A stretch of DNA of 30,378 nucleotides from a candidate division TM6 bacterium GW2011_GWF2_37_49 (GTDB lineage Bacteria > Babelota > Babeliae > Babelales > RVW-14), in NCBI GenBank assembly GCA_945861145.1, contig CAMATL010000013.1, positions 1 through 30,378 on the forward strand. Direction: 5' to 3'. This document shows positions 9,439 through 27,396 of this stretch, piece by piece. The position numbers and the translations under genes were made by a program. The stretch's first letter is position 1. Each line of letters opens with the position of its first letter. The notes under the pieces were generated by a model, which had not been told where the DNA came from, ran no database searches, and worked only from the letters and a program-made list of their open reading frames with translations.

Positions 9439-9466
9439 ATTCTATCAGGTGCTGGACAAAAGTCAA
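9439..9466 (-). promoter_or_regulatory. Near-consensus sigma70 promoter on the minus strand (TTGACT, 16-bp spacer, TAGAAT) reading toward the NfeD-flotillin operon; implies a ~230-nt leader
   Basis: Read on the reverse complement: ttgacttttgtccagcacctgatagaat. Confidence 0.35.
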
Positions 9467-9674
9467 CATCCTTTTTTGCCCATATTGCGCAATACATGGC
9501 GCATATGCCGCAACAACAACTCATTTAATGCACAGGCAGCAGATAACAGGCTAAGAGGTGCAACAAATAATCGTAATCGCGCCTGCCCGCGGGCAAAATA
9601 AATATTAATCGCAGGTTCAACCTTGAAGTGCATTGCAAAATACCAAGGGGCGCACGCCACTATATTTGACTGCG

Positions 9675-10514
9675 CTACTCGATATCAAAATCAAAATAAG
9701 TATCAGGGAATGGCTCATTATTGAGCGTGTAGTGCCACCATTCTTGCTCGTAAGCGCGAAAGCCCTGTTTTTCCATTTTAGTGCGCAGGTAATTGCGTTG
9801 AGTGGCGCACTCATCAGCTACCTTAGGGCTACTATGGTGTGATGCTTGATCCAAAAGATCCCAGCTTGAGCCCATGTCTACAGTGCCGTCATCAAGAAAA
9901 GGCAACGTCTCACAGCCTTTTACTGAACGAAGCGCAAAGATTGGTGCTTTGAGCTTGCCATCCACTTTGATTATTGAAAGGTCGATCGTGCTGCCGCGTG
10001 TATGGCCAGATTTTTTAGCAACATAACCACGGTCAAAAACATTTCTTTTATCGATTTTTGGGTAGTATTTTGCTTTCATTGCTTGGTCGTTTAAATCTTC
10101 GCTCCAGCGCATAAAGTGATTAACTGCTTTTTGAGGGCGATAAGCATCGTACACAACGAGGCTATAGCCATTCTCTAAGAGCTCTTTTTGAACCTTGCTC
10201 AGTGCTTGCGCCGCCTGCTTGGTTATGACAATACGAGCTGCTTTGTAACCGTCAACCCTTGCGCCAACAAAGTTTTCCGTCGAAAAATAACGCACTGATG
10301 CTTGTATGGTTTTATCCTGCTCATCCAGGTACACAAAGCCTTCTGGGATTGAAAAGCATGTGGCAGCAAAAACAGCAACAAACGCTACTGAGAGCTCAAG
10401 GCCGCGTAAAAACCTAATAATCATAGGATAATCCTTTCTTGATTTGTGCTTACCCATCATCATAGCCATGTCCTTAACCCTTGTACAACAGGGCTTGATC
10501 AACAAACAACTCAT
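9675..10514 (-). CDS. ddpX: D-alanyl-D-alanine dipeptidase, peptidase family M15D (VanX/DdpX-like), with an N-terminal signal or anchor sequence
   Basis: LVVYDAYRPQKAV, the zinc-ligand region SGHTRGSTIDLS and EQEWWHYTL all match the DdpX/VanX family. The true start may be the internal MIIRFL (hydrophobic leader). Confidence 0.8.
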   Translation of the reverse strand: MSCLLIKPCCTRVKDMAMMMGKHKSRKDYPMIIRFLRGLELSVAFVAVFAATCFSIPEGFVYLDEQDKTIQASVRYFSTENFVGARVDGYKAARIVITKQAAQALSKVQKELLENGYSLVVYDAYRPQKAVNHFMRWSEDLNDQAMKAKYYPKIDKRNVFDRGYVAKKSGHTRGSTIDLSIIKVDGKLKAPIFALRSVKGCETLPFLDDGTVDMGSSWDLLDQASHHSSPKVADECATQRNYLRTKMEKQGFRAYEQEWWHYTLNNEPFPDTYFDFDIE

Positions 10515-10745
10515 TTATTTCTTCTAAGCTCAATTGCTTAAAAATCTTCATGGCGACACTTTTTCTGCTTACCCTGAATTATATCAGGGACGGTGGCACA
10601 CTTCATCCTAGAATTTCCCTTTCATTATTGACTTTGCCCCTGCCATATTTCAAATTATTTTATTTTTGATTGCAAATAGAAATTAAAATAATGTAGGCTG
10701 AATAAATGAGTAATAGTTTTACTAAACCAAATCCAGGAGATATCC

Positions 10746-11096
10746 ATGAAGAACATGAACAAACTTTTCTTAATGTCTGCTCTTTTATTAGCAGCAAGTT
10801 CAACAAGTTACGCTGTAATGAATTTGCAACTCGATAATGATCGAGCTGAAGCTCTAACTGCACATTTTGCTCAACCTTTGGCCGATGGCCGAATGCACGA
10901 AGCTGTTAATGCCAACAGTCAAGAAACTGTTGAAGTTAGCAGCAAATGGCTAAACAATGAGGTTGTTGTTACTTGGAAAAATGCAGCTGGCGAAGTGAAG
11001 GATACGGATACTGTCCACTTCGACAATGCTAATGAAACTCTTAAATCTTCGTCTGATGATGACCAAGGCGACGGTCACGCAGACAAATTACGCTAA
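10746..11096 (+). CDS. Small secreted protein (116 aa), unknown function
   Basis: Signal peptide MKNMNKLFLMSALLLAASSTSYA. RBS ccaggagatatcc upstream. A terminator follows. Confidence 0.6.
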   Translation: MKNMNKLFLMSALLLAASSTSYAVMNLQLDNDRAEALTAHFAQPLADGRMHEAVNANSQETVEVSSKWLNNEVVVTWKNAAGEVKDTDTVHFDNANETLKSSSDDDQGDGHADKLR

Positions 11097-11137
11097 TCCA
11101 GCACCGTAATTTTTTTAATTCTAGATTAGAATTGTAG

Positions 11138-11169
11138 GGCCTTGGTTTTAAAAACCAAGGCTCTTTTTA
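11138..11169 (+). terminator. Rho-independent terminator
   Basis: GCCTTGGTTTT a AAAACCAAGGC followed by tcttttt. Confidence 0.75.
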
Positions 11170-11285
11170 ATTAGATCTCTTCCGAAACTTAAACTTTTAA
11201 TGTAACAGACTCAAATTCAAACTCTGCGTAACCTTCAGTTTGTGGTACACTGGATCAAACATGGCCATACAAAGAAGGATCTGGT

Positions 11286-12536
11286 ATGATTACGCGCGTC
11301 ACAGGGACTGAAGATTTACTTGATTTACGACTCTATAATTTTCTTATTTCTACAGCAAAAAAACATTTTGAGAGTTTTAATTTCAATGAAATAAGAACTC
11401 CAATCATCGAATACACACCATTGTTTGTACACTCGCTCGGCGAGCAAACCGACGTGGTCTCAAAAGAGATGTACGTATTCTTACAGGATCAAGAAAAATC
11501 AGTCTGCTTACGCCCAGAAATGACCGCATCCACTATTCGCGCTTGTTTTGAAAATCGCGTTGAGCGCTTCCCCTGGAAAGTGTTCTCATTCGGACCAATG
11601 TTTCGCCGCGAACGCCCTCAAAAAGGCCGTTTACGCCAATTTCATCAATTCAACGTGGAAATTATTGGCGCACAATCAATCATGCACGATGCACACTTAA
11701 TCAAAATGTTAGACACATTATTCAGCAAATCGCTTCAGCTTGAACATTATGTAATTAAAACTAATTTTCTCGGCTGCTTAAACGACCGTCAAACACATAA
11801 AGCTGCACTGATTGATTTTTTAAACCAACACAGCGCCAGCATTTGCGAGACCTGCCAAAAGCGAAAAGATGCCAACACGTTGCGCGTGTTTGACTGCAAA
11901 AATGCCGCCTGCCAAAAATTATATACCACAGCCCCCTTCATCATTCAGCACCTCTGTACCGGCTGCTCTGATGAATGGACAGCGCTGCAAGACCAGCTTC
12001 GCTTGCTCGGTGTAAACTCAATCATCGATAACGCATTGGTGCGCGGTCTTGATTATTACCAAAAAACAGTATTTGAATTTTCATCCAATCAGCTAGGCTC
12101 CCAGTCAGCATTCTGCGGTGGTGGTCGCTACCATCTTGGCAAAGAAGTTGGTGCAACTGAAGATTATCAAAGCGTCGGGGTAGGAATAGGCATTGAGCGA
12201 GTTCTTATGCTGCTTGAGCTCATTCAAGATAAGTTGACACTCGAAAACCCTCAGCGCCTGCACATGATAATCCCAATGACAACAGCTCAAGACACATTAG
12301 GATTATTATTGGCGCATGAATTGCGTCGTGAAAACTTGGCCTGCGACATTATCCTTGATAAAGCATCTGCCACCAACATGATGAAAAAAGCCAACAAGAT
12401 GAGCGCCGCCTGGGTACTACTCATTGGTGAAACCGAACAACAACAAAATACGGTTATGCTAAAAAATATGATGACCGGCGAATCAACGCCGGTCAAACAA
12501 GATGAACTGATCAAAAAATTAAAAGCTAATACTTAA
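11286..12536 (+). CDS. hisS: Histidine--tRNA ligase (class IIa aaRS with C-terminal anticodon-binding domain)
   Basis: N-terminal ITRVTGTEDLL, motif 2 FRRERPQKGRLRQFHQ, motif 3 GGGRYHLG, and a C-terminal anticodon-binding domain (AWVLLIGETEQQQNTVMLKNMMTGE). RBS AGAAGGA upstream. Confidence 0.9.
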   Translation: MITRVTGTEDLLDLRLYNFLISTAKKHFESFNFNEIRTPIIEYTPLFVHSLGEQTDVVSKEMYVFLQDQEKSVCLRPEMTASTIRACFENRVERFPWKVFSFGPMFRRERPQKGRLRQFHQFNVEIIGAQSIMHDAHLIKMLDTLFSKSLQLEHYVIKTNFLGCLNDRQTHKAALIDFLNQHSASICETCQKRKDANTLRVFDCKNAACQKLYTTAPFIIQHLCTGCSDEWTALQDQLRLLGVNSIIDNALVRGLDYYQKTVFEFSSNQLGSQSAFCGGGRYHLGKEVGATEDYQSVGVGIGIERVLMLLELIQDKLTLENPQRLHMIIPMTTAQDTLGLLLAHELRRENLACDIILDKASATNMMKKANKMSAAWVLLIGETEQQQNTVMLKNMMTGESTPVKQDELIKKLKANT

Positions 12537-12540
12537 TAAA

Positions 12541-13287
12541 TTAAGCCTTGCTCTCAATTAAAGGGTGCGCCGTAGCGCCCTCTTGAGGCTGTAGTTCTAG
12601 ATTTTCGTGATAACGGATATAGGCTTCAACCTGTAAAATCCGTTTGATCTGCGCTTGAAATCCAAAATTGTAACGTGAGAAGCTGATGTTTAAATCTTTA
12701 CGAATGCTTTTCACGTACTTTTTGATGAACCGAACTTTTTCTTTAATGTAGATGAAAAAATCATCCGGTTCTGACATCCAAGCAACTACTTGCCCCGGCA
12801 AATCATTTCCCATGAAAAGCCCGAAGTAGTTGATCTCGCTATCAATCTCAATAATAATATTGTCCAAAAGCCCTGCATACTGAGTCACGCTTTCTTCAGA
12901 TTTTCTGTACTCATCCTGATGGATTTGTACCTTACCTGAAGTTACCAAGGTGCCAACCTTCTCTTTGATAAAGAGGCTTTGGCGCATTGCTTCATCACGC
13001 TTTTGCAGTACTTCATTTTTCAATTCAATAAGGCATAATAATACATCTTCAACAAGCCGCTTATCACCAACAGTAAGAGGTTTAACCAGAATAATTTTTT
13101 TATTCGCCTTAGTTAAATTATCCAAAAAATGTTGGTACTCTTCTGTCGACAACGTTTTGAGTTGACGGTTAAGCTCAAGCGAATCTTCAACCAAAAGCTC
13201 TTGGTCTTGTACTGCTTCTTCAAAGCTTGAAGCATTTAATGCTTCTGAAGGTGTAGTGATCATGTCTTTATTTTCTAATTCCATCAT
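12541..13287 (-). CDS. Hypothetical protein (248 aa), Glu/Lys/Leu-rich, no recognisable family
   Basis: Clean ORF convergent with hisS, only 4 bp apart, with no intervening terminator. Confidence 0.5.
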   Translation of the reverse strand: MMELENKDMITTPSEALNASSFEEAVQDQELLVEDSLELNRQLKTLSTEEYQHFLDNLTKANKKIILVKPLTVGDKRLVEDVLLCLIELKNEVLQKRDEAMRQSLFIKEKVGTLVTSGKVQIHQDEYRKSEESVTQYAGLLDNIIIEIDSEINYFGLFMGNDLPGQVVAWMSEPDDFFIYIKEKVRFIKKYVKSIRKDLNISFSRYNFGFQAQIKRILQVEAYIRYHENLELQPQEGATAHPLIESKA

Positions 13288-13839
13288 GCTTCCAATCTCA
13301 CGGTAATTAAAAATGTTGACTGAAAAACAAGTTTATCTATGTTAAAAAAAATAGCAAAATCGAAAAATATTCTAAAAAAAACGCCGCATCCTTGACTTTA
13401 TCATTTCACAAGTTTGGTCAAATATTATTTTCCAATTGAAAAATATAAATCCAACTAATCTTACAAGAAAAGACGCTTGAACTCAACCCACAAATGCTTT
13501 CAAATAAAACCAATCATCCATGGCTGCCTTTGGTTAAAAAATTCAAACTGACAGTATTAACTTCTCTTAAAAAGAACCAATTCAACGACCCAATAGGCTC
13601 TTAACTAAAATACTAAATTGTTATCAACAACATTGTTGGTAACCTAATCGAGTGCTTGGGAAAGCCCTTGCCTAGAGAGCTTGCCTGCAATGTGTCCCAA
13701 AATTATACAGTTGCTTGCCCACCGACTAGCCCACTCTTTTAGGCAATGTTTACATAAAGTTTTTTTTTACGACACAACAGTAAAAAACCTCTTTAAAATC
13801 GATTAATTTTGTATACTTATCAAAAAACTTGCTGAAAGG

Positions 13840-15297
13840 TTGATCATGAAAACAGACTTAGGTTTTTCGTTCTTGCCGGTCACCTGCGACAGTGCAAAAA
13901 TAAATATCGGCTCTACATTCGTTGCATGCGATGGATCGCAGTTTCGCGGCATTGATTTTATACCACAAGCAATAAGAAATGGCGCTGCGCGGATCATTGC
14001 AGGCATACAATACACCCAAGAACTCGCAACTTTTGAACAACAATATCCACGTGTTATATTCTCATATACCTCAGACCCGCGCAAAGCGCTGGCCGAAGAA
14101 GCAGCCAAGGCGCACGGTTATCCAACAAAAAAGCTTCGCATTGTTGGTATCACAGGCACCAAAGGAAAAAGCACCATCACCCATCTCGTCGATCACATGC
14201 TGCGCACAGCAGGCCGCAAAACAGCACTGATCGGTGGTGTTGCAAATAAAATCTTAGATACGTCAATACCAAGCTCACTCACCACACCAAACAGTGATTT
14301 CTTACAAGCTTTTTTTGCTGCTTGCGTTGAAGAAGGTGTTGATACGGTAGTTATGGAAGTTTCATCCCATGCATTAAGTCTAGACCGCGTGCACAGCATT
14401 AAATTTGATGCGGTTGGTTTTACTAATCTGGCGCAAGATCATCTCGATTTTTATGGCACAATGGCAGCCTACTGCGACGCAAAACTATTACTTTTTAATC
14501 AACTTAAACCAACTGGCCATGCAATCATTAACCTTGATCATCCATGGGGGCAATATGTAGAAGAAGCCGCCAAAACGCAACTAAACCAGCAACAAATAAT
14601 CACGATCAGCAAGCAAAAACCAGCAACCGCCACGCTCGCTATTTTAGATAGCAGCCTTGCAGGCCTTGAGCTTTCAGTCACGAATTATTTACATGATAAC
14701 TCGCTGTATCTTACCAGTAGTTATCTTTTTGGCGCCCCCTATGCTTACAATATTGCCATGGCTGCACTTATTGGCCAGTCACTTGGCATTGCAGATGAAA
14801 TAATTACTCAAGCATTAACATCCTTCACTGGCACGCCAGGACGCTTACAACTCCATGTTTTAAAAAATGGTGCAAAAGCTTTTGTTGATTTCGCCCACAG
14901 CGGGCCTCCGATGGAAGCAGTCCTGCAGATGCTCAGGCCGCTCACCGACAATCTCATTGTATTGTTTGGCTGTGGCGGTGATCGCCCCAAGGAGCGACGC
15001 TTTTTAATGCCGCGAGCTGCGGCAGCCTTTGGTGATCATATTATTATTACAGAAGACAACCCGCGAACTGAAGACCGGTTACAAATTTTACGCGACATCG
15101 AAGCGAATATTCCGCCAGAAGCGCAACACAAAACACAAACGATCCAGGATCGCCGCCAAGCAATCGCAGCAGCCGTTAGCCTCGCCACAACACCGTCAAG
15201 CATTGTGGCCATCCTAGGCAAGGGTCATGAGCCATACCAAATCATTGGCACAACTCATCACCACTTCGATGATTTCGAAGAAATTAAAAATTTTTAA
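13840..15297 (+). CDS. murE: UDP-N-acetylmuramoyl-L-alanyl-D-glutamate--2,6-diaminopimelate ligase
   Basis: Mur-ligase P-loop GITGTKGKSTITHL and the MurE-specific DNPR motif (TEDNPRTED). Lies on its own, not inside a division-cell-wall (dcw) cluster. Confidence 0.85.
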   Translation: MIMKTDLGFSFLPVTCDSAKINIGSTFVACDGSQFRGIDFIPQAIRNGAARIIAGIQYTQELATFEQQYPRVIFSYTSDPRKALAEEAAKAHGYPTKKLRIVGITGTKGKSTITHLVDHMLRTAGRKTALIGGVANKILDTSIPSSLTTPNSDFLQAFFAACVEEGVDTVVMEVSSHALSLDRVHSIKFDAVGFTNLAQDHLDFYGTMAAYCDAKLLLFNQLKPTGHAIINLDHPWGQYVEEAAKTQLNQQQIITISKQKPATATLAILDSSLAGLELSVTNYLHDNSLYLTSSYLFGAPYAYNIAMAALIGQSLGIADEIITQALTSFTGTPGRLQLHVLKNGAKAFVDFAHSGPPMEAVLQMLRPLTDNLIVLFGCGGDRPKERRFLMPRAAAAFGDHIIITEDNPRTEDRLQILRDIEANIPPEAQHKTQTIQDRRQAIAAAVSLATTPSSIVAILGKGHEPYQIIGTTHHHFDDFEEIKNF

Positions 15298-15301: not shown

Positions 15302-16918
15302 TTATGACTCTAAAATTTTGAAACAACGTGCTTCATAATCCCAGATAACGATTACACGAGGAATATCAAATCTATCGTTATGCATGTCCCAATGAAGCAC
15401 CGTTGCATCGCCTTCTTCAAATAATTCTTTAGTGCCAAAATTTGTACCACGATCTTGAAACGAAAATTTTTGCGCCTTGTTAAGCCTCATCTCAAGAATG
15501 CCATCGCTCAATAATTTTGCTTGCATATGAATAGGCTCCTTATCTGGCATAAATTCAGTCCACACAAAAGCGCCCTTGTCATAATAAATTGGGGTTGTCT
15601 CTGGGAAACCATTCATGTAAAAGGCCTGTGCAACACTGGTACAAAACCAACCAAAAGGTAATCCTGCAAAGCAGATAGGTCCGGGTCTATCTTTCAATTG
15701 CACCACTAACTCTTTAACGGCAGTATTAATATTTGCAAGCACCTGCTCACGCTCATGTAGAAAAAATGGAAATACTGCGGCATTAAAAACGATAAGCCCC
15801 GCAAAGCACCAGGCTTTGGGTTTAAAAGGTAAATCATTTTCAAAAACAAGCAGAAGAATCGCTGCAACAAAAAAAAGTAGCGCTTCGTACATAAAGCGAG
15901 ACGTGTAAAATCGAATCACTGCCGGCCAAGCAAAGGCAATACTGCTCGCAAACAAAAACAGCACCATTGATTTTTTACGGCATTTAAAAAACAACCATAC
16001 TAAAAAAGCTACTACTAAAATTATCAACGATCCTTTACGTAAGCGGTTGCCACCACCTACAAATCCTAGATTGGTTAGATCAACAAGCCAAGTAACATAG
16101 TTCAAAAATTGATCTTTTAAGAAAGCAAAAAAAGCAAATCCAGGCTTAGTAACCCAGGTCAAATCGCCTTCTGATGATTTAAGAGGAAAGCGACTAACCC
16201 GCCAACCAAGATACCCAACAACAGGCACAAGCGCGCTCACGAATAGCCAAGCTTTATCTCGCACGCATCGCCAGTTCCAGATACACGCAAAGGCTACCCA
16301 TAACGGTAGTACCAGTATAGTTTCACGCGTTAAAAGAGAACAACAACTTAATACTATCATTGGCAGAAGTAGAAATTTATTACGAGATACTTCAAACCGA
16401 AGATACAACACAGCTATCAGCAGAGTGAAAAATAGTGCTAAAAGATGTTGCTGAGCCGTTGCCCACCCAAACCAATTCAACATAGATAAATGAAATAAAA
16501 AATACCCAGCACCCAGAGCGGCGACGCTTAATGAAAAATACCGCTTGAAAACAATCCACACGAGCACCGCATTTAAGCCATGCAGAAGGGATGAAACTAG
16601 TAAATAACCATAAGGAGAAAATCCAAAAAGAAGATATTGCACCCCATAAAAACCATAAAGTAATGGCCGGTACAATACAGCAAAAAATGACTGCTCCGGG
16701 GCTATATAATTAGAAGGCTGCATAAAAGTATGTAATCCAATCTCGGTAAAAAAATTACCTAACTCGCGCAAAGCTTCAATTTTACCATGCCACACAAGCC
16801 CAAAATCATCAACACCAAAACCCCATGAAAGATAGGGTAAGCCGAGAACAATTAATGCTATAGCCACTAAAAATATAGGTGCAATTTTTTGCATTTTTCT
16901 ACATTGAAGCAGTATCAT
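15302..16918 (-). CDS. GT-C fold membrane glycosyltransferase, PMT/ArnT-like (GT39/GT83-like), 538 aa
   Basis: About 11 predicted transmembrane helices and a first-loop acidic motif WGFGVDDFG, followed by a soluble C-terminal domain. AAAGGAG lies 5 nt upstream of the ATG. Paralogous to 29594..30378. Confidence 0.65.
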   Translation of the reverse strand: MILLQCRKMQKIAPIFLVAIALIVLGLPYLSWGFGVDDFGLVWHGKIEALRELGNFFTEIGLHTFMQPSNYIAPEQSFFAVLYRPLLYGFYGVQYLLFGFSPYGYLLVSSLLHGLNAVLVWIVFKRYFSLSVAALGAGYFLFHLSMLNWFGWATAQQHLLALFFTLLIAVLYLRFEVSRNKFLLLPMIVLSCCSLLTRETILVLPLWVAFACIWNWRCVRDKAWLFVSALVPVVGYLGWRVSRFPLKSSEGDLTWVTKPGFAFFAFLKDQFLNYVTWLVDLTNLGFVGGGNRLRKGSLIILVVAFLVWLFFKCRKKSMVLFLFASSIAFAWPAVIRFYTSRFMYEALLFFVAAILLLVFENDLPFKPKAWCFAGLIVFNAAVFPFFLHEREQVLANINTAVKELVVQLKDRPGPICFAGLPFGWFCTSVAQAFYMNGFPETTPIYYDKGAFVWTEFMPDKEPIHMQAKLLSDGILEMRLNKAQKFSFQDRGTNFGTKELFEEGDATVLHWDMHNDRFDIPRVIVIWDYEARCFKILES

Positions 16919-17039: not shown

Positions 17040-19130
17040 ATGAGAGCAATCAGTCATTGGTTTGGCACCAATAAATTACGTGCATTATTTATAAGCACGG
17101 TGTTCATTAAACTGTTTTTTATCATTTTGTTTTGTTCCGAATTTGTTCCAAAATTCTTCCTCCCCTTTGTTGACCACTTTGTTAATAACTGGGGAGATCC
17201 TTGGCAACATTTTTGGCGACAAGGCAACGGCATAGAATTTCCTTACAACCCATTGATGTTGTATATTTTGGCCATTTTTGTAAAATTCGGCCAATTACTA
17301 CATGCCCCTGTTTTTTTAACTGAAATATTGCTCAAATTACCCATTCTTGCCGCTGACTGTCTTCTTACTTATCTCATGCTGCGATCCTGTAGAGGTAAAG
17401 CGCTTGAAACACTCTTCTTTCTCTCTTTTTCACCAATATTAATCTACGCCTCGTTTATGCATACTCAACTGGATATCATTCCCACAGCATTACTGTTTTT
17501 AGCCATCTATCTGATTCGATTTCAGCCGTCACGTATCGCTGGTGGTATTTTTGGCAACACGCTTGTCGCTGGTAGTGTGTTTGGCGCCGCGCTTGCTACC
17601 AAGCTTCATGTTGCGGCTGCAGGTCCACTCCTAGCAATCTATCTTTGGAAAAATAAAGGCTGGCGCATCGGACTACTATTCACAACTATGGCCACAACCG
17701 TTTATGCCTTTTTTATAACACCTTTTTTATTCTCAGAAGGGTTTTATCGCATGGTACTTACCCATCCAAAGCAAATGATGGTATTTGATGTATTTGCTCA
17801 ACTGGGACAATTAAAAATACTCGTCCCTGTATTTTCTTTAATGGTTTTATATGGTCGTTTTTTGACCTATAAAAAAATCAACCTTGACCTACTCGAAAGC
17901 TTTTTAGCAATCACTTTTGCCACACTCGTATTTTTTATTATTCCTGCGCCAGCATGGTATGTGTGGATGCTACCATTTATTGCATTGCTTTTCATACGCA
18001 ATTACCAACAAAACAGCCTCTTAGTCTTTCTGTACCTTGCGCTCAATGTTAGTTATCTGATTTTTTTTGTTTTCTTTTATCGTGAAGCGGGCATGCAAGA
18101 TTTGCTGCTTTTCGGGCAATCACTTAACTTCAAAATCCACCATGAAAAATTAGCTAATCTTTCTTTTACCTTGCTCGAAAGTATCTTATTTCTTGTCATC
18201 TATTTTGTTTATAAAGCAGGCATCAAAAGTAATGAGCTCTACGCGCGCCAACAAAATTTGGTTATAGGCATCAGTGGAGATAGTGGCACTGGGAAGAGCA
18301 CGCTCATGAAACAATTTATCGAAATTTTTAACGTCAAGGCAACTCTTATTGAAGGTGATGGAGATCACCGATGGGAGCGAGGCGATACACATTGGCAAGA
18401 AATTACTCACCTCAATCCTAAAGCAAATTTTTTGCATCGGCAGGCAGAACACATACTGCTTTTAAAAAATCACCAACCCGCGTGGCGCACCAACTATAAT
18501 CACCACACTGGCAAATTTGATGCCCCGCAAAAAATAGAACCTACTGACTTTATTCTTCTCAGCGGCTTACACCCGCTCTACTTACCAAAGATGCGCAAAC
18601 TTATAGACGTTAAAATTTATCTTGATCCTCAAGAAAAGATCAAACGACACTGGAAAATTACACGTGATATGCGCGAACGCGGTCACAGCAAAGACCATAT
18701 CTTAGAACAAATGGACCGCCGCACAAATGACATTAAAAAATATATTGATCCTCAAAAAGAATTTGCTGACATCATAATTCATTATTTTACTACTGATGAC
18801 TTTGAAGTAGGCTTTACTCAAGCACAATTCGCAAAACAGCTCAAAATTACCTTTGATTCCAGTATTAAAATTGAGCCTCTCTTGCAAATACTTATTCAGG
18901 CCCAGGTCAATACAGAATGGAATTATGCTGATGATTTACGCACTCAGGAATTAATTTTAGATAAGCCTTTAGATGCTCAAATTTTATGCCAACTACACAC
19001 CGATTTATTACCAAATATTGAAGAGCTCTTAGCAAGCAAGCTTGAGTGGCTTGACGGATACGATGGATTTGTGCAATTTATTTGCTTAATGGTTGTTAGT
19101 GAAAAAATGAAGGAGCGTCATGCAAGCTAA
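17040..19130 (+). CDS. Fusion protein: N-terminal polytopic membrane domain (~420 aa, unknown family) + C-terminal phosphoribulokinase/uridine-kinase family P-loop kinase
   Basis: C-terminal domain carries IGISGDSGTGKSTL, YNHHTGKFD, LLSGLHPLY, DVKIYLD...WKITRDMRERGHS and YIDPQKEFADIII, which are strong PRK-family signatures. The N-terminal half is uniformly hydrophobic. Confidence 0.75.
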   Translation: MRAISHWFGTNKLRALFISTVFIKLFFIILFCSEFVPKFFLPFVDHFVNNWGDPWQHFWRQGNGIEFPYNPLMLYILAIFVKFGQLLHAPVFLTEILLKLPILAADCLLTYLMLRSCRGKALETLFFLSFSPILIYASFMHTQLDIIPTALLFLAIYLIRFQPSRIAGGIFGNTLVAGSVFGAALATKLHVAAAGPLLAIYLWKNKGWRIGLLFTTMATTVYAFFITPFLFSEGFYRMVLTHPKQMMVFDVFAQLGQLKILVPVFSLMVLYGRFLTYKKINLDLLESFLAITFATLVFFIIPAPAWYVWMLPFIALLFIRNYQQNSLLVFLYLALNVSYLIFFVFFYREAGMQDLLLFGQSLNFKIHHEKLANLSFTLLESILFLVIYFVYKAGIKSNELYARQQNLVIGISGDSGTGKSTLMKQFIEIFNVKATLIEGDGDHRWERGDTHWQEITHLNPKANFLHRQAEHILLLKNHQPAWRTNYNHHTGKFDAPQKIEPTDFILLSGLHPLYLPKMRKLIDVKIYLDPQEKIKRHWKITRDMRERGHSKDHILEQMDRRTNDIKKYIDPQKEFADIIIHYFTTDDFEVGFTQAQFAKQLKITFDSSIKIEPLLQILIQAQVNTEWNYADDLRTQELILDKPLDAQILCQLHTDLLPNIEELLASKLEWLDGYDGFVQFICLMVVSEKMKERHAS

Positions 19131-19830
19131 TCACAATCGACGCATTATTAAGGGCTTGCTTTTCGATCTTGATAACACATTGTATCATTATAATCCTGCT
19201 CATGAAGCTGGACTCAGTGCTGTTTTTAAAACACTCAGTCAACAAGTAACTCAATCTCCAGCAGAATTATCTACCGTTTACGAGCAGGCAAAGCAACAGG
19301 TTAAACACCGACTTCATAGTACCGCAGCTTCTCATCATCGACTACTATATCTTCAAGCTATGCTTGAACTGCTTGGGCTTTTCTCTCCCACCCTTACCCA
19401 AGATCTTTACAACCATTACTGGAATGCATTTTTTGCAGCCATGCAACCAATTACAGGGATGAGTGAAACCCTGCATAGATTAGCAAAAAGCTATAGTATC
19501 GGAATAGTAACTAATTTTGTTGCAGACATTCAGTATCGAAAACTTGAACAACTCGGTATTGCAAACCTCATAAGCCATCTCGTCACAAGCGAAGAAATAG
19601 GCTGCGAAAAACCTGATCCAAGAGTCTTTTTTGCCGCTTGTAAAAAAATGCAGCTACAAGCAGATGAGGTATGCATGATCGGTGACGATCTAGAGATTGA
19701 TATAATTCCTGCACAACATTTAGGCATGGAAACTTATTGGCTGGTCCCACAAACCAGTACTACAAAACAAGAGCATTCATTGTTTAAAACATGTTCGACC
19801 TTCTATGACATCGAAGAGAGATTACAATGA
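19120..19830 (+). CDS. HAD-superfamily hydrolase (subfamily IA-like phosphatase)
   Basis: Motif I FDLDNTLY, motif II IGIVTNF and motif IV GDDLEIDI. Overlaps the upstream gene by 11 bp. Confidence 0.8.
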   Translation: MQANHNRRIIKGLLFDLDNTLYHYNPAHEAGLSAVFKTLSQQVTQSPAELSTVYEQAKQQVKHRLHSTAASHHRLLYLQAMLELLGLFSPTLTQDLYNHYWNAFFAAMQPITGMSETLHRLAKSYSIGIVTNFVADIQYRKLEQLGIANLISHLVTSEEIGCEKPDPRVFFAACKKMQLQADEVCMIGDDLEIDIIPAQHLGMETYWLVPQTSTTKQEHSLFKTCSTFYDIEERLQ

Positions 19831-20924
19831 CAACAATCTTAGACCTTATTGAACTTTCAAAATGGGCCGGCCAACGCTTTGACCTCGTGCAAGCTGGCGG
19901 GGGTAACTCATCATTTAAAACTGATGATAACCAAATGTTTATTAAAGCATCTGGCATTAGTTTAAGCGAAGTAAGCACATCAAATGGTTTTGTTACCGTT
20001 GATTTAGTCCCCTTGCGCAAAGGGCTTACAAAGCTACACAAACAACAAGAAACCCTTGATAAAAAAGCGCTCGAAGCTGCTGCAGAAGAACTTCTAGCTA
20101 AAGTAAAAACAGCAACCAACGTCGCTCGCCCATCAATCGAGACCTTTTTACATGCTTATCTTGAGACCTATGCTATGCACACTCACGGCATTGTAGTTAA
20201 CACAATTGCTTGTCGTAAAAATTGGCGCGAAACTTTTGAGCAAATTTTCCCCGAGAGCCTCTGTGTTTCCTATAAAACACCAGGCATTGAGCTCGCGCTT
20301 GAACTCGACCTACAAGTCAGCGCCTACATCAAAGAAAAAGGCAAGAAACCAAGTATTATTTTTTTACAAAATCACGGGCTCATTGTCAGCGCACCAACAG
20401 CGGCTGAAGTTAAATTTTTGACCGAAGAAGTTACGATTAAACTCGAACAATTTCTTAATATCACCAACAATACGTACCGCTTAACATCAGTGATTTCGGA
20501 AAACATACACAACGTATTTGGCGCCAGCAAGGTTTCCTACCTTTCTAACGACGCAGGCCTACGCGAGCTAATTATTAATGCAAAGCCTTTATTTTTCCAA
20601 CGACCATTTACCCCTGACACACTCGTGTATTGCGGCGTGCGCCTGCTCGTCCTCAATGATTTTGACGATGCAGACACACTAACTAAATATAAAGAAAATT
20701 TCACAGAAATTCCTCGTGTTATTATTTGCCGCGATCTGATATTTTTCATTGCAGATTCAGTACGCAAAGCACGCGAGATCGAAGAAGTACTGAAATTTCA
20801 CCTTGCAGTACTTGTGATTAATGTCACCCAAAATATTCAACCACAAGACATTCAATTCTTGGAAGAAGAAGAGCTTAATTATTTAGCCAAATGGGATGCT
20901 GAAAAGTACCGTCAGGCAGTTTAA
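19827..20924 (+). CDS. Class II aldolase/adducin-family domain protein (ribulose-5-P 4-epimerase / MtnB-dehydratase-like N-terminal domain) + C-terminal domain of unknown function
   Basis: AGGGNSSFK (substrate-phosphate-binding GN-S motif), the HTHG metal-ligand pair and the NHGLIVSA motif. ATGA overlap with the HAD gene. Confidence 0.65.
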   Translation: MTTILDLIELSKWAGQRFDLVQAGGGNSSFKTDDNQMFIKASGISLSEVSTSNGFVTVDLVPLRKGLTKLHKQQETLDKKALEAAAEELLAKVKTATNVARPSIETFLHAYLETYAMHTHGIVVNTIACRKNWRETFEQIFPESLCVSYKTPGIELALELDLQVSAYIKEKGKKPSIIFLQNHGLIVSAPTAAEVKFLTEEVTIKLEQFLNITNNTYRLTSVISENIHNVFGASKVSYLSNDAGLRELIINAKPLFFQRPFTPDTLVYCGVRLLVLNDFDDADTLTKYKENFTEIPRVIICRDLIFFIADSVRKAREIEEVLKFHLAVLVINVTQNIQPQDIQFLEEEELNYLAKWDAEKYRQAV

Positions 20925-20987: not shown

Positions 20988-22697
20988 ATGCACATCATTA
21001 TCCCAATGTCTGGCGTAGGCGCACGATTTCAAGCCGCAGGATACAAAGACCCCAAGCCTCTTATCTTGGTAGATGGCAAACCAATTATTGAGCATGTGGT
21101 TAATCTTTTTCCAGGCGAAACAAAATTCACCTTCATCTGCAATGAAGAGCATTTACAAACCACCGCAATGCGTGAAATCTTACAACGCATTGCTCCCTTA
21201 AGCTCCATTGCAAGCATCCCTCCACACAAGTTAGGCCCCGTATTTGCAACACTGCAAATGCAAGATTTAATCGATGACCAAGAAGAAGTAATCGTTAATT
21301 ATTGCGATTTTGGCACCTACTGGGATTACCAAGATTTTTTAAGCCACACGCGCAATCGCGCCGCCGCCGGAGCTATTCCAGCCTATCGAGGTTTTCATCC
21401 CCACATGCTTGGTACCACTAACTACGCATTTATTAAAGATTCAAATCAATGGCTAGAAGCCATTAAAGAAAAAGAACCTTGGACCAATAATCGCCTGCAA
21501 GAATATGCCTCCAATGGCACCTATTATTTCGCACGCGGCAGCTACGTAAAAAAATATTTTGAACAGGCAATCAAGCGCAATTTAAGCATCCCCGGTGCGA
21601 CCGGTGCGAATGGCGAATTTTATGTAAGCCTTGTGTACAACCTCATGGTTGAAGACAAATTACCAGTCTCAATCTACGAAATTCAGCATATGCTGCAGTG
21701 GGGAACCCCGCAAGATTTACGCGAATACGAAGCCTGGTCTGGCTATTTTCGCCAGCTTGTGGAAAAACCAAGCATCTCTCAATCTGTTGAACAGCGGAGC
21801 GTTAACCTTATCCCGCTCGCAGGGCGCGGCAAACGATTTGCTGACGAAGGCTACACTACACCAAAGCCTTTAATTCCAGTCAGCGGTAAGCCCATGATTG
21901 TACAAGCAGCGGCAGCACTGCCACGAGCAGAACAGCAAATATTTGTGTGTTTACAAGATCATTTAAATACCGCCCCGCTTAAACAAGCACTTAAGCAGGC
22001 CTACCCTCATGCATCGGTGATTGGTATCAATGCCGTCACAGAAGGGCAAGCTTGTACGTGCGCCATTGGATTGAATAATGTTGCCCCTGAAGCACCTGTT
22101 ACTATTGGCGCTTGTGACAACAGCATGCTTTTCGATAGAAAAAAGTATGAGGCTTTGCGCGATCGCGCTGATGTCGATGCCATCATATGGACATTTAAAA
22201 ATCATCCTTCTGCAAAAACTAATCCACAAATGTACGGGTGGGTTATCACTGATGATCAAAATAAGGCCGTAGGCGTTTCAGTAAAAAAAGCAATCTCATC
22301 TACGCCTGAAAAAGACCATGCCATTGTTGGTGCTTTTTATTTTAAAAAAGCAGCTCATTTCACGGCAGGACTTGAATCACTCTATAAAAACAATATTCGC
22401 ATAAATAATGAATTTTATGTCGACAGCCTCTGCGGAGAGCTGATCAAACTCGGGCTCAATGTTTATGTCTTTGAAGTTGATTTTTATGTGTGCTGGGGAA
22501 TCCCAAACGATTTACGCACCTTCAATTACTGGCAAAGCTTTTTCCATAAGTGTTCATGGCACCCCTACTCAATCAGCAAGGATCATATGGTTGCAGCTGA
22601 GGCTCAACAAAAGCTCATTGAGGAAGCAACAACATTTGCACAATCATGTGACTCTTTTTATAGTTCGCAATCAAACGATTTAGCAAAAACGATTTAG
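20988..22697 (+). CDS. Protein with two tandem sugar-phosphate nucleotidyltransferase (NTP_transferase/GxGxR-type) domains
   Basis: Each half begins with the nucleotidyltransferase signature: IIPMSGVGARF...PKPLILVDGKPIIEHV and LIPLAGRGKRF...PKPLIPVSGKPMIVQA. Confidence 0.7.
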   Translation: MHIIIPMSGVGARFQAAGYKDPKPLILVDGKPIIEHVVNLFPGETKFTFICNEEHLQTTAMREILQRIAPLSSIASIPPHKLGPVFATLQMQDLIDDQEEVIVNYCDFGTYWDYQDFLSHTRNRAAAGAIPAYRGFHPHMLGTTNYAFIKDSNQWLEAIKEKEPWTNNRLQEYASNGTYYFARGSYVKKYFEQAIKRNLSIPGATGANGEFYVSLVYNLMVEDKLPVSIYEIQHMLQWGTPQDLREYEAWSGYFRQLVEKPSISQSVEQRSVNLIPLAGRGKRFADEGYTTPKPLIPVSGKPMIVQAAAALPRAEQQIFVCLQDHLNTAPLKQALKQAYPHASVIGINAVTEGQACTCAIGLNNVAPEAPVTIGACDNSMLFDRKKYEALRDRADVDAIIWTFKNHPSAKTNPQMYGWVITDDQNKAVGVSVKKAISSTPEKDHAIVGAFYFKKAAHFTAGLESLYKNNIRINNEFYVDSLCGELIKLGLNVYVFEVDFYVCWGIPNDLRTFNYWQSFFHKCSWHPYSISKDHMVAAEAQQKLIEEATTFAQSCDSFYSSQSNDLAKTI

Positions 22698-22833: not shown

Positions 22834-23199
22834 ATGGATTTAATTATGAGATGTAATAAGTGCAACAGAGAGGTTCATTTTGCTGAATTTATGGGGTATG
22901 CAACAGGATATTTGCTTGAAAAAATTGGTCCTATGTTATTAGAGGCGACCGTTAAGGCCCTTATTGCATGTCTTACAGCCACAGCAGAAAAATCCTCACC
23001 AAATGCACCTACAGAAATCACCTTACAAACCAGAGGGGTGGTAGATAATACAATGGCTGGTATAGCTCTTTACTTTAAAATTGCCTGCCCTGATTGCAAA
23101 CAATGCTGCTGGCAAGCAGCTTCTACACCTAACGTAGAAATTCAAAAAAAGGCCATACCAAAGAGTCCCCAAAAAAAAGAAGTCTCTACTTCAACTTAA
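22834..23199 (+). CDS. Small cytoplasmic CxxC...CPDC (zinc-ribbon-like) protein with Lys/Ser/Thr-rich C-terminal tail; family A, copy 1
   Basis: MDLIMRCNKCNREVHFAEFMGYA...IACPDCKQCCW...KKAIPKSPQKKEVSTST. Paralogous to 25751..26095. Confidence 0.6.
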   Translation: MDLIMRCNKCNREVHFAEFMGYATGYLLEKIGPMLLEATVKALIACLTATAEKSSPNAPTEITLQTRGVVDNTMAGIALYFKIACPDCKQCCWQAASTPNVEIQKKAIPKSPQKKEVSTST

Positions 23200-23237: not shown

Positions 23238-23759
23238 ATGAATGTTTATCAAATTATGTTTATTAGCATACTTGTAGTATCAACACCGCTGATTGCATGG
23301 GACAACAAGGATGTCAATCAAGAATTAGAAATTTCTTGCAATGCTGATTTAACTTCACTTCTCAATGAAAACATCTCCAAATTCACTGTCATGGCTGTTA
23401 AAGCTAACTCGGTGGTAGTTTTTTTTGATGAAAAATTCAATGGCAACCCAGAATTAATTTGTACAAACTGCAGCAGAAGACTTTCTTATGCTGAATTTTT
23501 TGGTGTTATTGGAGCCATGACACTACAAAAAGTGCTAACAAGTAGCGATAAGTTTGAAGTTGTCATCTCTTTTTTTGACTCATTTACTAAGTTACTTGAA
23601 GCAGAAAATTTGGCCGTAATTGCAGCTTTCATGCTGGAATCAATTAAAAAAAAAGATGATCTGAGGAGCTATCCATGCCCAGATTGCAAGAAAAGTAACT
23701 CATGGATTTATGCCCCATATGAATCAGAAGTCAACGCAAAAATCAAAGCCCAGGCATAA
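23238..23759 (+). CDS. Secreted CxxC...CPDC protein; family B, copy 1, distantly related to family A
   Basis: Signal peptide MNVYQIMFISILVVSTPLIA. Core CTNCSRRLSYAEFFG...YPCPDCKKSNSW. RBS aaaggggag. Paralogous to 26134..26670. Confidence 0.6.
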   Translation: MNVYQIMFISILVVSTPLIAWDNKDVNQELEISCNADLTSLLNENISKFTVMAVKANSVVVFFDEKFNGNPELICTNCSRRLSYAEFFGVIGAMTLQKVLTSSDKFEVVISFFDSFTKLLEAENLAVIAAFMLESIKKKDDLRSYPCPDCKKSNSWIYAPYESEVNAKIKAQA

Positions 23760-23787: not shown

Positions 23788-24023
23788 TTGAAGTTGATTT
23801 TTATGTGTGTTGGGGAATCCCAAACGATTTACGCACATTCAATTACTGGCAAAGCTTTTTCCATAAATGTTCATGGCACCCCTACTCAATCAACAAGGAT
23901 GATATGATTGCAGCTGAGGCTCAACAAAAGCTCATTGAGGAAGCAACAACATTTGCACAATCATGTGACTCTTTTTTTACTTCTCAGTTGAGTAAAAAAA
24001 AGGTGACTGAATTATGCAAATAA
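23788..24023 (+). pseudogene. Duplicated 3' fragment of the nucleotidyltransferase gene (~97% identity to 22471..22659). It has no ATG (the listed ORF 23805..24023 starts at a GTG) and preserves a different, probably ancestral, C-terminus overlapping the GNAT start
   Basis: 6 mismatches over about 190 bp against 22471..22659. Homology fades over the next ~13 bp in both copies. In-frame remnant reads ...VCWGIPNDLRTFNYWQSFFHKCSWHPYSI... Confidence 0.75.
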
Positions 24024-24514
24024 GATCACTAACTCAAAAAGATTGGTTAATTTGGAAGAAAATTCGATTAGAAGCTCTAAAAGATTCGCCCGAAAATTTT
24101 GGATCCGCTCATGAAGAAGAATCAAATTGGAAAGGTTCAGATTTTCGAAATAGCTTACAAAAAAACAATATCTTTGGAGCCTTCATTAACCATGAACTTA
24201 TAGCTTGCGCTGGATTTTATAAAATGAATTCACTCAAAACAAAACATCGAGGTGTTATTTGGGGGGTATATACACAGCCTGAACACAGATTGAAAGGCGC
24301 ATCCAACAGCTTAATTGAAGCTATTATTATTCATGCCAAAGAACATGTAATACAAATACATTTAACTTGTGTAACAACAAATCTTGGCGCAATTAAGCTT
24401 TATCAAAAACATGGTTTTTTAATTTATGGAACTGAACCTCGCTCGCTCAAAATTGATGATATATTTTTTGACGAACACTTGATGATTTTTGTATTTAACA
24501 AAGATTCGCAATAA
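24014..24514 (+). CDS. GNAT-family N-acetyltransferase
   Basis: Acetyl-CoA-binding motif HRLKGASNSLIEAII in a 166-aa protein. RBS aaggtga upstream. Confidence 0.75.
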   Translation: MQIRSLTQKDWLIWKKIRLEALKDSPENFGSAHEEESNWKGSDFRNSLQKNNIFGAFINHELIACAGFYKMNSLKTKHRGVIWGVYTQPEHRLKGASNSLIEAIIIHAKEHVIQIHLTCVTTNLGAIKLYQKHGFLIYGTEPRSLKIDDIFFDEHLMIFVFNKDSQ

Positions 24515-24708: not shown

Positions 24709-25599
24709 TCATCCCTCGCGCTTGTAATCGGCAAGTACTTCATCAATAACTCGCCAAGATTTTTCTATCTCAAGGCTATTGGTGCCAGGCAGTGCAGCAC
24801 ATACGATTAAAGCCTTCCACAGGGCCCATCCTCGCCCACGCGCCCAAGTGGCACTATCGAGTGGCAGTGCTGCTCGAAATACATCTCGGCTCTCCCCTTT
24901 GAATAATGTCCAAGCAATCACCAAATCACAAGCAGGGTCGCCGACACCAGAACAACCAAAATCAATGACGGCGCTCAACGCGCCATTTTCAACTAATAGA
25001 TTCCCGACAGCAACATCCCCGTGAAACCAGACAGGAAAGCCTTGCCAGGAGGACTCAAGAGCTTTATCCCATACGGCAGTGACCGCGGCAACATCAATCG
25101 CATCGGCAAGAATCGCGAGCGATTGTCTTATTTCAGCATCATAAATTAACAGTGGCCCGCCACAGCGAGAAAAATTATGTGGTCCTCCGGTAGAGTCGAT
25201 TCGCTGCAGAGCAACTAAAAATTCGGCCAAGGCGGTGGCAAATTGCCACAGGTCAGCAATCCGCTCGATCGACACCGTTTCGCCATCAAGCCACTTATAA
25301 ATAGACCAATGCCATGGATACCCTTGGGCAGGCTTACCCATAGCCAAAGGAACAGGAATCGGGAGAGGCAGAAGTGGAGCCAATTTTGGCAACCAACAAT
25401 GTTCTTTTTCCACCGACGAAACATACTCCTCAGCACTCGGTAGCCGAACTGTCATCTGCTCACCGAGATGAAAAGTTCTGTTGTCCCATCCGCCAAACTC
25501 AACCGGCTTAACCGGAAGGTCAGCCCATTGCGGAAATTGCACGGCAACAAGGCGGCGAACAAGAGCGGCATCAATATGAATTTTGTCTGTGTTTGGCAT
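24709..25599 (-). CDS. APH-fold small-molecule kinase (aminoglycoside/choline/sugar phosphotransferase family), compositionally foreign
   Basis: Contains the catalytic HGDVAVGNLLV and IDFGCSGVGDPACDL motifs. Sampled stretches are 48-57% GC against about 36-40% for neighbouring genes. Amino-acid composition is Ala/Leu/Trp/Gly-rich, typical of a high-GC donor. Confidence 0.75.
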   Translation of the reverse strand: MPNTDKIHIDAALVRRLVAVQFPQWADLPVKPVEFGGWDNRTFHLGEQMTVRLPSAEEYVSSVEKEHCWLPKLAPLLPLPIPVPLAMGKPAQGYPWHWSIYKWLDGETVSIERIADLWQFATALAEFLVALQRIDSTGGPHNFSRCGGPLLIYDAEIRQSLAILADAIDVAAVTAVWDKALESSWQGFPVWFHGDVAVGNLLVENGALSAVIDFGCSGVGDPACDLVIAWTLFKGESRDVFRAALPLDSATWARGRGWALWKALIVCAALPGTNSLEIEKSWRVIDEVLADYKREG

Positions 25600-26676: not shown

Positions 26677-27396
26677 TTATCGCTCATTCTGCTGCGGCAA
26701 TTTTTTACGCAAGCTAGCCGAATAGCTCATCGTCCTCGCAATTAATTTCCAGCGAGCTTTTAAGCCTGAATTCCATGAAGATGAGCCGAATTGGCGAGGC
26801 CCAAATGAGACTTGAAAACGAATCAATTTAAGACCAAGCTTTTTTGCCATGTAACAGGCGTACAAATCAAGCGAAAAATCATGTGGCGGGTTTTTCCACT
26901 GCTCAAAAAAACTACGATGAAATATATTTGGCTGGGCATTTATATCCCAGAGAGGCGTCTGCAAATACAGTGTTTCAAACGCGCTCATACCCACGGTAAA
27001 AAACTGATCAAAAATAGGCCGCCCCGCGCGAGCGCCCTTCACAAATAATTTTTCAGATACTGAGCTTTTAGCGATAATGTCATACGCACGAACCACGTCT
27101 CTTGGATCTGCTTGCAGGTCTGCATGCGTCCAACCAAGCAGCTCTCCCGTTGCCACACGCAGCCCACTCAAAATTCCAAAACCGTAACCCTGATTTTTTT
27201 CAACGCGAGTAGTTTTTGCAAACTCGTAACGAGGAAGTAAAGCGGCAAGCACTGCGGCAGTCTCATCAAACGAACCATTATCTACAAGCATCACTTCAAT
27301 ATCTCGATCACCAATAACATCGGCAAAACGATCAAGTAAAAAGGGGATACTTTTTGATTCATTGTAACAAGGCACAATAATTGATAACTTCTTCAT
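26677..27396 (-). CDS. GT2-family glycosyltransferase (dolichyl/polyprenyl-phosphate sugar synthase-like), soluble form
   Basis: LSIIVPCYNE...VMLVDNGSFD...(DxD region) GWTHADLQADP, the N-terminal GT-A fold signatures. GGGAG RBS upstream. Confidence 0.75.
   Translation of the reverse strand: MKKLSIIVPCYNESKSIPFLLDRFADVIGDRDIEVMLVDNGSFDETAAVLAALLPRYEFAKTTRVEKNQGYGFGILSGLRVATGELLGWTHADLQADPRDVVRAYDIIAKSSVSEKLFVKGARAGRPIFDQFFTVGMSAFETLYLQTPLWDINAQPNIFHRSFFEQWKNPPHDFSLDLYACYMAKKLGLKLIRFQVSFGPRQFGSSSWNSGLKARWKLIARTMSYSASLRKKLPQQNER

Follow-up and report, generated by a model that had tools for sequence, protein, structure and literature searches.

A three-gene unit in a 30,378-nucleotide stretch from a candidate division TM6 bacterium (GW2011_GWF2_37_49, contig CAMATL010000013.1; the whole stretch is called the window below) codes for a phosphoribulokinase (PRK)-type kinase fused to a polytopic membrane domain, a HAD phosphatase and a class-II-aldolase-fold protein. 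This trio is the 5' half of a larger conserved and horizontally mobile cassette. We consider it probable, at about 0.6, that the cassette makes a dedicated sugar donor via ribulose 1,5-bisphosphate (RuBP) and ribulose 1-phosphate (Ru1P), with which an envelope glycan or lipid is decorated outside the cytoplasmic membrane. We show here which domains are present and how they fold, that catalytic residues are conserved, how the genes are ordered and translationally coupled, and where the cassette occurs among taxa and plasmids. The cassette is apparently undescribed: full-text literature searching gave no account of it or of the fusion (a single seeming joint mention turned out to be unrelated), in line with an earlier reading of this DNA made from the letters alone (the sequence-only reading), which held that the trio does not belong to a described pathway.

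The fusion protein and its translationally coupled partners

The fusion gene (17040-19130, plus strand, 696 aa) is followed on the same strand by the genes for a HAD-IA phosphatase resembling RuBP 5-phosphatase (19120-19830, 236 aa) and for a two-domain class-II-aldolase-fold protein (19827-20924, 365 aa). As read from the sequence, the phosphatase ATG at 19120, with AGGAG ahead of it, lies within the end of the fusion open reading frame (ORF) and creates an 11-bp overlap, while the phosphatase and aldolase-fold genes share the 4 bp of an ATGA stop/start. These overlaps, the three ORFs and every motif quoted in the sequence-only reading are present in the sequence or its translations. Pfam matches agree with the families it had named: PF00485 (PRK) covers residues 408-587 of the fusion protein (E=1.6e-40), HAD_2 matches the phosphatase (E=2e-26) and Aldolase_II matches residues 7-202 of the third protein (E=7e-16).

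The kinase domain occupies residues 404-696 of the fusion protein (18249..19130, plus strand), which public annotation calls "uridine kinase", "phosphoribulokinase" or "hypothetical protein". Its best NCBIfam model is that of the cyanobacterial-type PRK (NF005655, PRK07429), with 206.4 bits over positions 6-192 of 326; the homologue from an E. coli plasmid described below scores 205.5 bits over model positions 5-259. The uridine kinase models TIGR00235 and NF004018 give 79.9 and 79.5 bits against cutoffs of 220 and 180, respectively. Among proteins of solved structure, the PRKs 6hzk, 6kev and 6gve match at E~2e-41 and a uridine kinase at 1.5e-11. The similarity to cyanobacterial and plant PRK spans about 180 residues.

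The phosphate of ribulose 5-phosphate (Ru5P) is bound in CrPRK by Arg64, Tyr103 and His105, and the catalytic loop contains Arg159, Asp160 and Arg164 in CrPRK and Lys142, Asp146 and Arg164 in the T. elongatus enzyme (10.1101/422709, PMC6800369). Transferred via alignment with 6hzk, the named residues correspond to R447, Y486, H488, K539, R542, D543, R547 and R561 of the fusion protein. Across 57 of 57 family members none of these positions varies, nor do K419, D440 and H443, so the P-loop, the catalytic Asp and the Ru5P-phosphate ligands of PRK are kept throughout. The sole variable equivalent is that of CrPRK Arg67, which was called non-conserved in its own structure paper. Judged by these residues the Ru5P site is intact, and the sequence comparisons confirm a PRK-like rather than uridine-kinase-like domain, as had been proposed; it aligns far better to PRK than to uridine or cytidine kinases. 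The model scores, the E-values against solved structures and the invariant PRK residues together rule out the "uridine kinase" annotation.

The P-loop, the catalytic Asp and the named Ru5P-phosphate ligands are common to the window kinase and type II PRKs (6hzk, 6kev, 6gve, 6h7g). Unlike these, the window kinase is fused to a 400-residue membrane domain, lies in a window without RuBisCO, has relatives in hosts that include heterotrophs and aligns to only the first 192 of 326 model positions, with a below-cutoff score. No RuBisCO match was obtained in the window ORFs scanned, and no conserved family of RuBisCO size emerged from the clustering of 80 homologous loci (see below), which bears out the earlier exclusion of the Calvin cycle.

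Residues 1-400 (17040..18239, plus strand) form the polytopic domain, for which Pfam gives no match. The sequence-only reading had called the kinase membrane-anchored. This holds as far as the N-terminal domain is indeed polytopic, but it is an understatement, since comparison of the predicted structure with GT-C enzymes reveals a GT-C glycosyltransferase fold and the anchor probably has an enzymatic function of its own. The closest matches are GPI mannosyltransferase I (28.1), ALG3 (27.8), ALG6 (25.7), PIG-U (23.2), PimE (20.6) and ArnT (18.3), with OST, PMT and Aft enzymes below ArnT; the domain has a long first outer loop with short helices and can be superposed on the solved enzymes. Except for the non-catalytic PIG-U, the best-matched structures take polyprenyl- or dolichyl-phosphate-linked sugar donors. 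A donor of this type for the fusion protein is suggested indirectly through the co-encoded GT2 resembling ArnC, DPMS and GtrB and through GtrA, both discussed below. The invariant acidic residues of the domain are D106 and D145, neither of which appears to lie in the first outer loop. A cytoplasmic location of the kinase is favoured by the K/R-rich stretch that follows the last helix. A search of 1.84 billion representatives with the membrane domain alone returned 416 proteins at E<=1e-10. The top 150 of these are mostly 660-750 aa long, while those that are shorter seem to be fragments, derived from contigs that are truncated; this GT-C family therefore seems to exist almost only in fusion with the kinase.

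The top NCBIfam model of the phosphatase is NF053830, ribulose-1,5-bisphosphate 5-phosphatase (E=8.5e-49, 166 bits). The same model was matched by 29 of 29 cassette HAD proteins tested, with the best E-value of any family (4e-56), and the catalytic motifs are retained, D16, D18, K164, D189 and D194 being invariant in the 29 sequences. Conversion of RuBP to Ru1P has been demonstrated for the haloarchaeal RuBP 5-phosphatase, whose gene shares an operon with that of a class-II aldolase (PMC9700705).

A confident predicted model of the third protein contains a class-II fold, an extra second domain and a conserved putative metal site. The class II aldolase/adducin fold is accompanied by a three-His metal site and a Glu/Asp acid-base residue. 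Subfamily models all stay below their cutoffs (fucA 17 against 400, mtnB TIGR03328 20 against 137, AraD-like 19.5 against 251 bits), and the FucA-type model TIGR01086 reaches E=0.003. The N-terminal domains of bifunctional aldolase/SDR proteins match best, with about 64 bits where the cutoffs are 686 or more.

The conserved cassette and its distribution

In a pattern scan that covered one genome for each species, 411 stretches matched; a relative is encoded in 291 of them, which come from more than 15 phylum-level groups. Synteny was assessed by tblastn with the window proteins and by ORF clustering in 80 fetched loci, 47 of them with at least 7 kb on both sides. Full-length fusion homologues, 37-77% identical, are found in Dependentiae, Melainabacteria/Obscuribacterales, Leptospiraceae, Paenibacillus, Clostridium, Flavobacterium, Cytophagaceae, Campylobacterales, Omnitrophota, Chlamydiae, Cloacimonadota, Nitrospirae, Planctomycetales, Bacteriovoracales and Methylomonas. 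The window itself makes up the final 30 kb of a 40-kb metagenome contig (ENA ERZ27280245), and its nearest relatives belong to Candidatus Dependentiae/Babeliales.

By tblastn, the aldolase-fold gene is present in 73 of the 80 loci, the HAD and nucleotidyltransferase genes in 68 each and a small GT2 gene in 57. ORF clustering added a protein of about 197 aa (53 of 80 loci) and a GtrA-family protein (PF04138; 28 of 80). Within the 47 well-flanked loci the corresponding numbers are 43 (aldolase-fold), 42 (nucleotidyltransferase), 39 (HAD), 36 (197-aa protein), 35 (GT2) and 18 (GtrA). The commonest order is fusion, HAD, aldolase-fold, nucleotidyltransferase, in some loci GtrA, then GT2 and the 197-aa protein. 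Median gaps are -11 bp between fusion and HAD, -4 bp between HAD and aldolase-fold, +1 bp between aldolase-fold and nucleotidyltransferase and 0 bp between GT2 and the 197-aa protein. With the same gene order and family medians of -11 and -4 bp, the arrangement of the trio is far beyond chance, and the three genes occur together in many genomes from many phyla. The linkage claimed in the sequence-only reading stands, and neither of the two outcomes that it had named as refuting it, a better alignment of the kinase to uridine/cytidine kinases or a trio confined to this genome, was obtained. The nucleotidyltransferase and small GT2 genes of the window, members of the same conserved unit, had been missed.

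The nucleotidyltransferase (20988..22697, plus strand, 569 aa) is a double, internally duplicated sugar-phosphate nucleotidyltransferase with two NTP_transferase-type stretches, both of which keep the GxGxRF...KPL and WGTP motifs. It is 50-67% identical in the 68 loci and mostly encoded straight after the aldolase-fold gene. The small soluble GT2 (26677..27396, minus strand; PF00535), displaced and inverted in the window, is a candidate polyprenyl-phosphate sugar synthase. Its closest relatives of known structure are ArnC (7e-11), dolichol-phosphate-mannose synthase (DPMS) and GtrB, each of which is a polyprenyl-phosphate glycosyltransferase; these matches score modestly, and those in NCBIfam are generic. 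The protein is 50-62% identical in the 57 loci, and the profile of the cassette GT2 matches the window ORF at E=9e-108. A second GT2 gene (28627-29613, plus strand) and a membrane protein with a weak PMT_2 match complete the glycosyltransferase island in which the trio had been placed, and which is real.

The 197-aa protein is named a PI-PLC/GDPD family member by RefSeq. H6-R7, E24-x-D26 and H38 are invariant in it and D39 is at least 90% conserved, an H-R/E-x-D/H-D pattern that we take to be the catalytic pattern of the PI-PLC/GDPD superfamily. Comparison of this protein with sequences of solved structures gave nothing significant.

A second polytopic membrane protein, about 520-650 aa long and varying between lineages, is added in many cassettes. 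The window has a 538-aa protein with a soluble C-terminal part in this role, encoded divergently from the fusion gene (15302..16918, minus strand); those that other cassettes carry instead are unrelated to it. Its PMT_2 match (E=0.0011) is weak and below cutoff, and it is conserved only in Dependentiae-like relatives; possibly it is a second, acceptor-specific GT-C. Searched against Pfam, these second membrane proteins gave no match other than this one and a clear one beside an orphan fusion (see below). In Melainabacteria (loci L030, L031, L059 and others), paralogous membrane proteins of about 530 aa without a family match end the cassette past the GDPD-like gene, two of them in tandem in 11 loci. 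Another family, of about 547-586 aa, takes the same place in Leptospiraceae and on the E. coli plasmid.

This 33-kb IncR plasmid (NZ_CP145712.1) carries a complete cassette at 6022-14984, in the order nucleotidyltransferase, GtrA, GT2, GDPD-like, "uridine kinase", HAD, aldolase-fold, 586-aa membrane protein; an IS26 transposase gene follows at a distance of about 1.6 kb. The cassette was found in 2 of 5,426 complete E. coli genomes, both times on a plasmid, once from human stool and once from a bullfrog. On plasmids of Hirschia baltica and Azospirillum brasilense it is located inside polysaccharide loci with Wzm/Wzt-type ABC transporter genes, and the Azospirillum locus also carries gmd and further glycosyltransferase genes. 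The proteobacterial plasmid cassettes (L082, L084, L085) form a clade much more divergent than L004-L081, with identities to the window proteins of 28% (fusion), 25-26% (aldolase-fold), 46-47% (nucleotidyltransferase) and 48-54% (GT2); the family thus extends beyond the 291 stretches of the pattern scan.

Orphan fusions, with no HAD, aldolase-fold or nucleotidyltransferase gene nearby, were found in Obscuribacterales (L013, 7953-12142; also L016 and L019). There the orphan stands back-to-back with a clear PMT_2-family GT-C (E=5e-19), and metagenome-assembled genomes with an orphan already have a full cassette (L008, L007).

The double nucleotidyltransferase is also encoded by the cyanophages S-SM2 and Bellamy (42-44% identical). 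In Synechococcus phage S-SM2 (GU071095.1, 7001-10309) its gene is located two genes upstream of a short class-II aldolase gene, in a sugar-biosynthesis island that includes transketolase-like, carbohydrate kinase and phosphoheptose isomerase genes and has no PRK or HAD match to the window proteins.

A proposed route to an envelope sugar donor

Parts of the cassette have counterparts in known systems. The Gtr systems of Shigella and Salmonella (GtrA/GtrB/GtrC), ArnC/ArnT and the GT136 pentofuranose systems based on phosphoribosyl pyrophosphate (PRPP) (PMC11127046) co-encode a GT2, a GtrA and a GT-C, as part of the cassette loci do, and, like the cassette, Gtr/Arn-type systems are mobile and often located within, or added to, polysaccharide loci. 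Of this three-component set the window has GT2 and GT-C without GtrA, which many other loci lack as well. Unlike Gtr/Arn-type systems, the cassette brings a precursor branch of its own with four enzymes, namely the PRK-type kinase, the HAD phosphatase, the aldolase-fold protein and the double nucleotidyltransferase. In most cases it adds the GDPD-like enzyme and often a second variable membrane protein, while its GT-C is kinase-fused and nearer to PIG-M, ALG3 and ALG6 than to ArnT and GtrC. The haloarchaeal non-carboxylating pentose bisphosphate pathway (PMC9700705) shares with the cassette a HAD of the same subfamily followed by a class-II-aldolase-fold enzyme, and RuBP without RuBisCO. There, RuBP is derived from nucleosides via ribose-1,5-bisphosphate (R15P) isomerase and the pathway is catabolic, whereas the cassette would use Ru5P via the PRK-type kinase and feed a nucleotidyltransferase and glycosyltransferases; moreover, the aldolase-fold protein of the cassette is not of the FucA type and has a second domain.

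The nucleotide-heptose route (GmhA, the HldE/HddA kinase, the HAD phosphatase GmhB and the HddC/HldE nucleotidyltransferase) follows the same logic as the cassette: a kinase turns a monophosphate into a bisphosphate, a HAD phosphatase strips the distal phosphate and a nucleotidyltransferase activates the other one. Its enzymes all belong to other families, and the heptose kinase acts on the anomeric hydroxyl, PRK on the primary C1 hydroxyl of a ketose. By analogy, the cassette may be regarded as a Gtr/Arn-type glycosylation system joined to a heptose-style activation branch, borrowing the haloarchaeal step from RuBP to Ru1P.

We infer the substrates and products of the pathway, the direction of dephosphorylation, the chemistry of the aldolase-fold enzyme, the nucleotide and the acceptor as follows. 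The cytoplasmic PRK-type domain would phosphorylate Ru5P at C1 to RuBP, from which the translationally coupled HAD phosphatase would remove the 5-phosphate to yield Ru1P. The aldolase-fold enzyme would remodel this ketose-1-phosphate through metal-stabilised enediolate chemistry, that is by epimerisation, dehydration or isomerisation and not by net cleavage, and the double nucleotidyltransferase would convert the product into a nucleotide-activated sugar. The small GT2 would put the sugar on polyprenyl phosphate, GtrA, if present, would flip the lipid-linked sugar, and the kinase-fused GT-C and/or the second variable GT-C-like protein would move it to the acceptor. E. coli has no RuBP of its own, and its growth is greatly restricted when prk is expressed alone (PMC7714395), yet the cassette occurs on E. 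coli plasmids; a coupled consumer of RuBP would then be necessary, which offers a rationale for the conserved overlap of the fusion and HAD genes. The general idea of the sequence-only reading, a route from a pentulose phosphate to an activated donor for a lipid-linked sugar decoration, is supported and fits the HAD, nucleotidyltransferase, GT2, GtrA and GT-C findings.

Several points weigh against this pathway. By curated score, the cassette enzymes fall outside the PRK, RuBP phosphatase, FucA, MtnB and AraD equivalog families; the window kinase misses the PRK cutoff (206.4 against 236 bits) and the window phosphatase the NF053830 equivalog cutoff (166 against 330). The window GT2 is 4 kb away on the opposite strand, and searching all six frames with family profiles revealed neither a GtrA nor a GDPD-like gene in the window. 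The topology of the membrane domain is ambiguous, with 12 or 13 crossings in the model, and the pathway provides no rationale for fusing its first and last enzymes. The aldolase-fold protein could be a true aldolase that diverts carbon to dihydroxyacetone phosphate (DHAP) and glycolaldehyde. Finally, the phosphate of Ru1P is on a primary, non-anomeric carbon, so the chain of kinase, phosphatase, nucleotidyltransferase and GT2 alone gives no glycosyl donor and an extra, unexplained chemical step is needed. Either an aldose-1-phosphate is the product of the aldolase-fold enzyme, or the phosphate is shifted to C2. We speculate that such a shift could proceed via nucleotide activation and cyclisation of the GDPD type, in which case the presence of two nucleotidyltransferase sites would be explained; the idea is weakened because the GDPD-like gene is absent from the window.

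A specific outcome of such chemistry, which we find unlikely, is that the cassette converts Ru5P to a ribulo- or xylulo-furanose-type ketopentofuranosyl donor, giving PRK and RuBP an anabolic role apart from CO2 fixation. Loss of the 5-phosphate would let the furanose close and one nucleotidyltransferase site would activate the 1-phosphate. The GDPD/PI-PLC-like enzyme would then form a 1,2-cyclic phosphate, opening to the anomeric 2-phosphate, from which the second nucleotidyltransferase site would make an NDP-ketofuranose for GT2 to put on polyprenyl phosphate ahead of the GT-C transfer. The activated precursor of ketopentofuranose residues is unknown (PMC7685785). The cassette was rejected as a general source of Xulf in E. 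coli (O95/O97; xylulofuranose side chains also exist in Yersinia), being plasmid-borne and present in only 2 of the 5,426 genomes; a distant DNA search with a gammaproteobacterial copy found nothing, though it would have missed a plasmid copy too.

The anomeric-phosphate problem would be solved with enzymes present in the window if the aldolase-fold enzyme converted the ketose-1-phosphate to an aldose-1-phosphate, performing chemistry of the MtnA or R15P-isomerase type on another fold. The product would be an NDP-pentofuranose donor (Ribf/Araf type), and the cassette a PRPP-independent counterpart of the three-component GT-C systems that are established to add pentofuranoses (PMC11127046). GT2, GtrA and GT-C fit that logic, but ribose-1-phosphate could be obtained more cheaply via phosphopentomutase, and two intact nucleotidyltransferase sites and the GDPD-like enzyme are left unexplained. 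To our knowledge, no class-II-aldolase-fold enzyme isomerises a ketose-1-phosphate to an aldose-1-phosphate, and we hold this variant to be rather doubtful. It is somewhat less likely still that the PRK-like domain makes no free RuBP and instead acts at the membrane, on a lipid- or polymer-linked sugar or on another ketose phosphate, or serves the GT-C as a regulatory ATP-binding module, with the HAD and aldolase-fold genes serving a separate precursor branch. The near-obligate fusion suggests physical coupling of the kinase to a membrane step, the orphan fusions lack the other precursor genes nearby and the kinase scores under the curated PRK cutoff. A substrate of a very different kind, or none at all, would however not easily account for the invariance of all Ru5P-phosphate-binding and catalytic PRK residues, and the tight coupling to an RuBP-phosphatase-like HAD is conserved.

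The order of a phosphatase that best matches RuBP 5-phosphatase and a class-II-aldolase-fold gene next to it would also suit a catabolic or detoxifying shunt of the haloarchaeal kind (Ru5P to RuBP, Ru1P and then DHAP plus glycolaldehyde), with the glycosylation genes as mere neighbours. We regard it as very improbable: ATP-costly catabolism of Ru5P would be pointless where the pentose phosphate pathway exists, fusion ties the kinase to a GT-C, the nucleotidyltransferase and GT2 genes match the trio itself in their conservation within the operon, the aldolase-fold protein has an extra domain and is not FucA-type, and R15P isomerase and nucleoside phosphorylase are absent from the cassette in the clustered loci. 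An ordinary uridine/cytidine kinase, or a methionine-salvage or 5-deoxyribose module (MtnB/DrdA), standing by chance among membrane and sugar genes is effectively refuted by the sequence comparisons. The source annotation "uridine kinase" and the class-II aldolase fold of MtnB speak for it; the uridine kinase models, at about 80 bits against cutoffs of 180-220, and the MtnB score of 20 against 137 speak against it. Methionine salvage, already dismissed in its canonical form by the sequence-only reading, was rejected on this MtnB score, on the absence of a conserved MtnA- or MtnK-like partner in the clustering and on the APH-family kinase of the window, which is not conserved with the cassette.

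PRK and RuBisCO are taken as the signature enzymes of the Calvin cycle, and no explanation has so far been available for the PRK-like genes of heterotrophs. Here, many bacterial phyla encode a PRK-type domain in permanent fusion with a glycosyltransferase, its Ru5P site intact, within an operon of sugar-activation and lipid-carrier genes. The cassette potentially holds a new metabolic branch. If the proposed pathway is correct, RuBP is a biosynthetic intermediate of envelope glycans, a new nucleotide sugar and a new lipid-linked sugar are to be discovered, and "PRK" matches in metagenomes are no proof of autotrophy. Should the donor be ketofuranosyl, this would be the first biosynthetic route to ketopentofuranose residues, and the fusion, abundant in Melainabacteria, would be relevant to the origin of plant-type PRK. 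The cassette on the 33-kb E. coli plasmid makes the model directly testable in a standard host.

Other genes of the window

Scans for promoters and terminators gave no more hits than in shuffled sequence. Two ORFs directly past the nucleotidyltransferase gene (22834-23199 and 23238-23759, both plus strand) match no family and lack relatives among the 80 loci; the product of the first is Cys-rich, with CNKCN and CPDCKQC motifs. Genes for a GNAT acetyltransferase (24014-24514, plus strand) and the APH-family kinase (24709-25599, minus strand), located between the nucleotidyltransferase and GT2 genes, are not conserved with the cassette. On the other side of the trio, a VanX-type D-Ala-D-Ala dipeptidase (PF01427, E=2e-39) is encoded a few kb from MurE (9675-10514, minus strand, and 13840-15297, plus strand, respectively).

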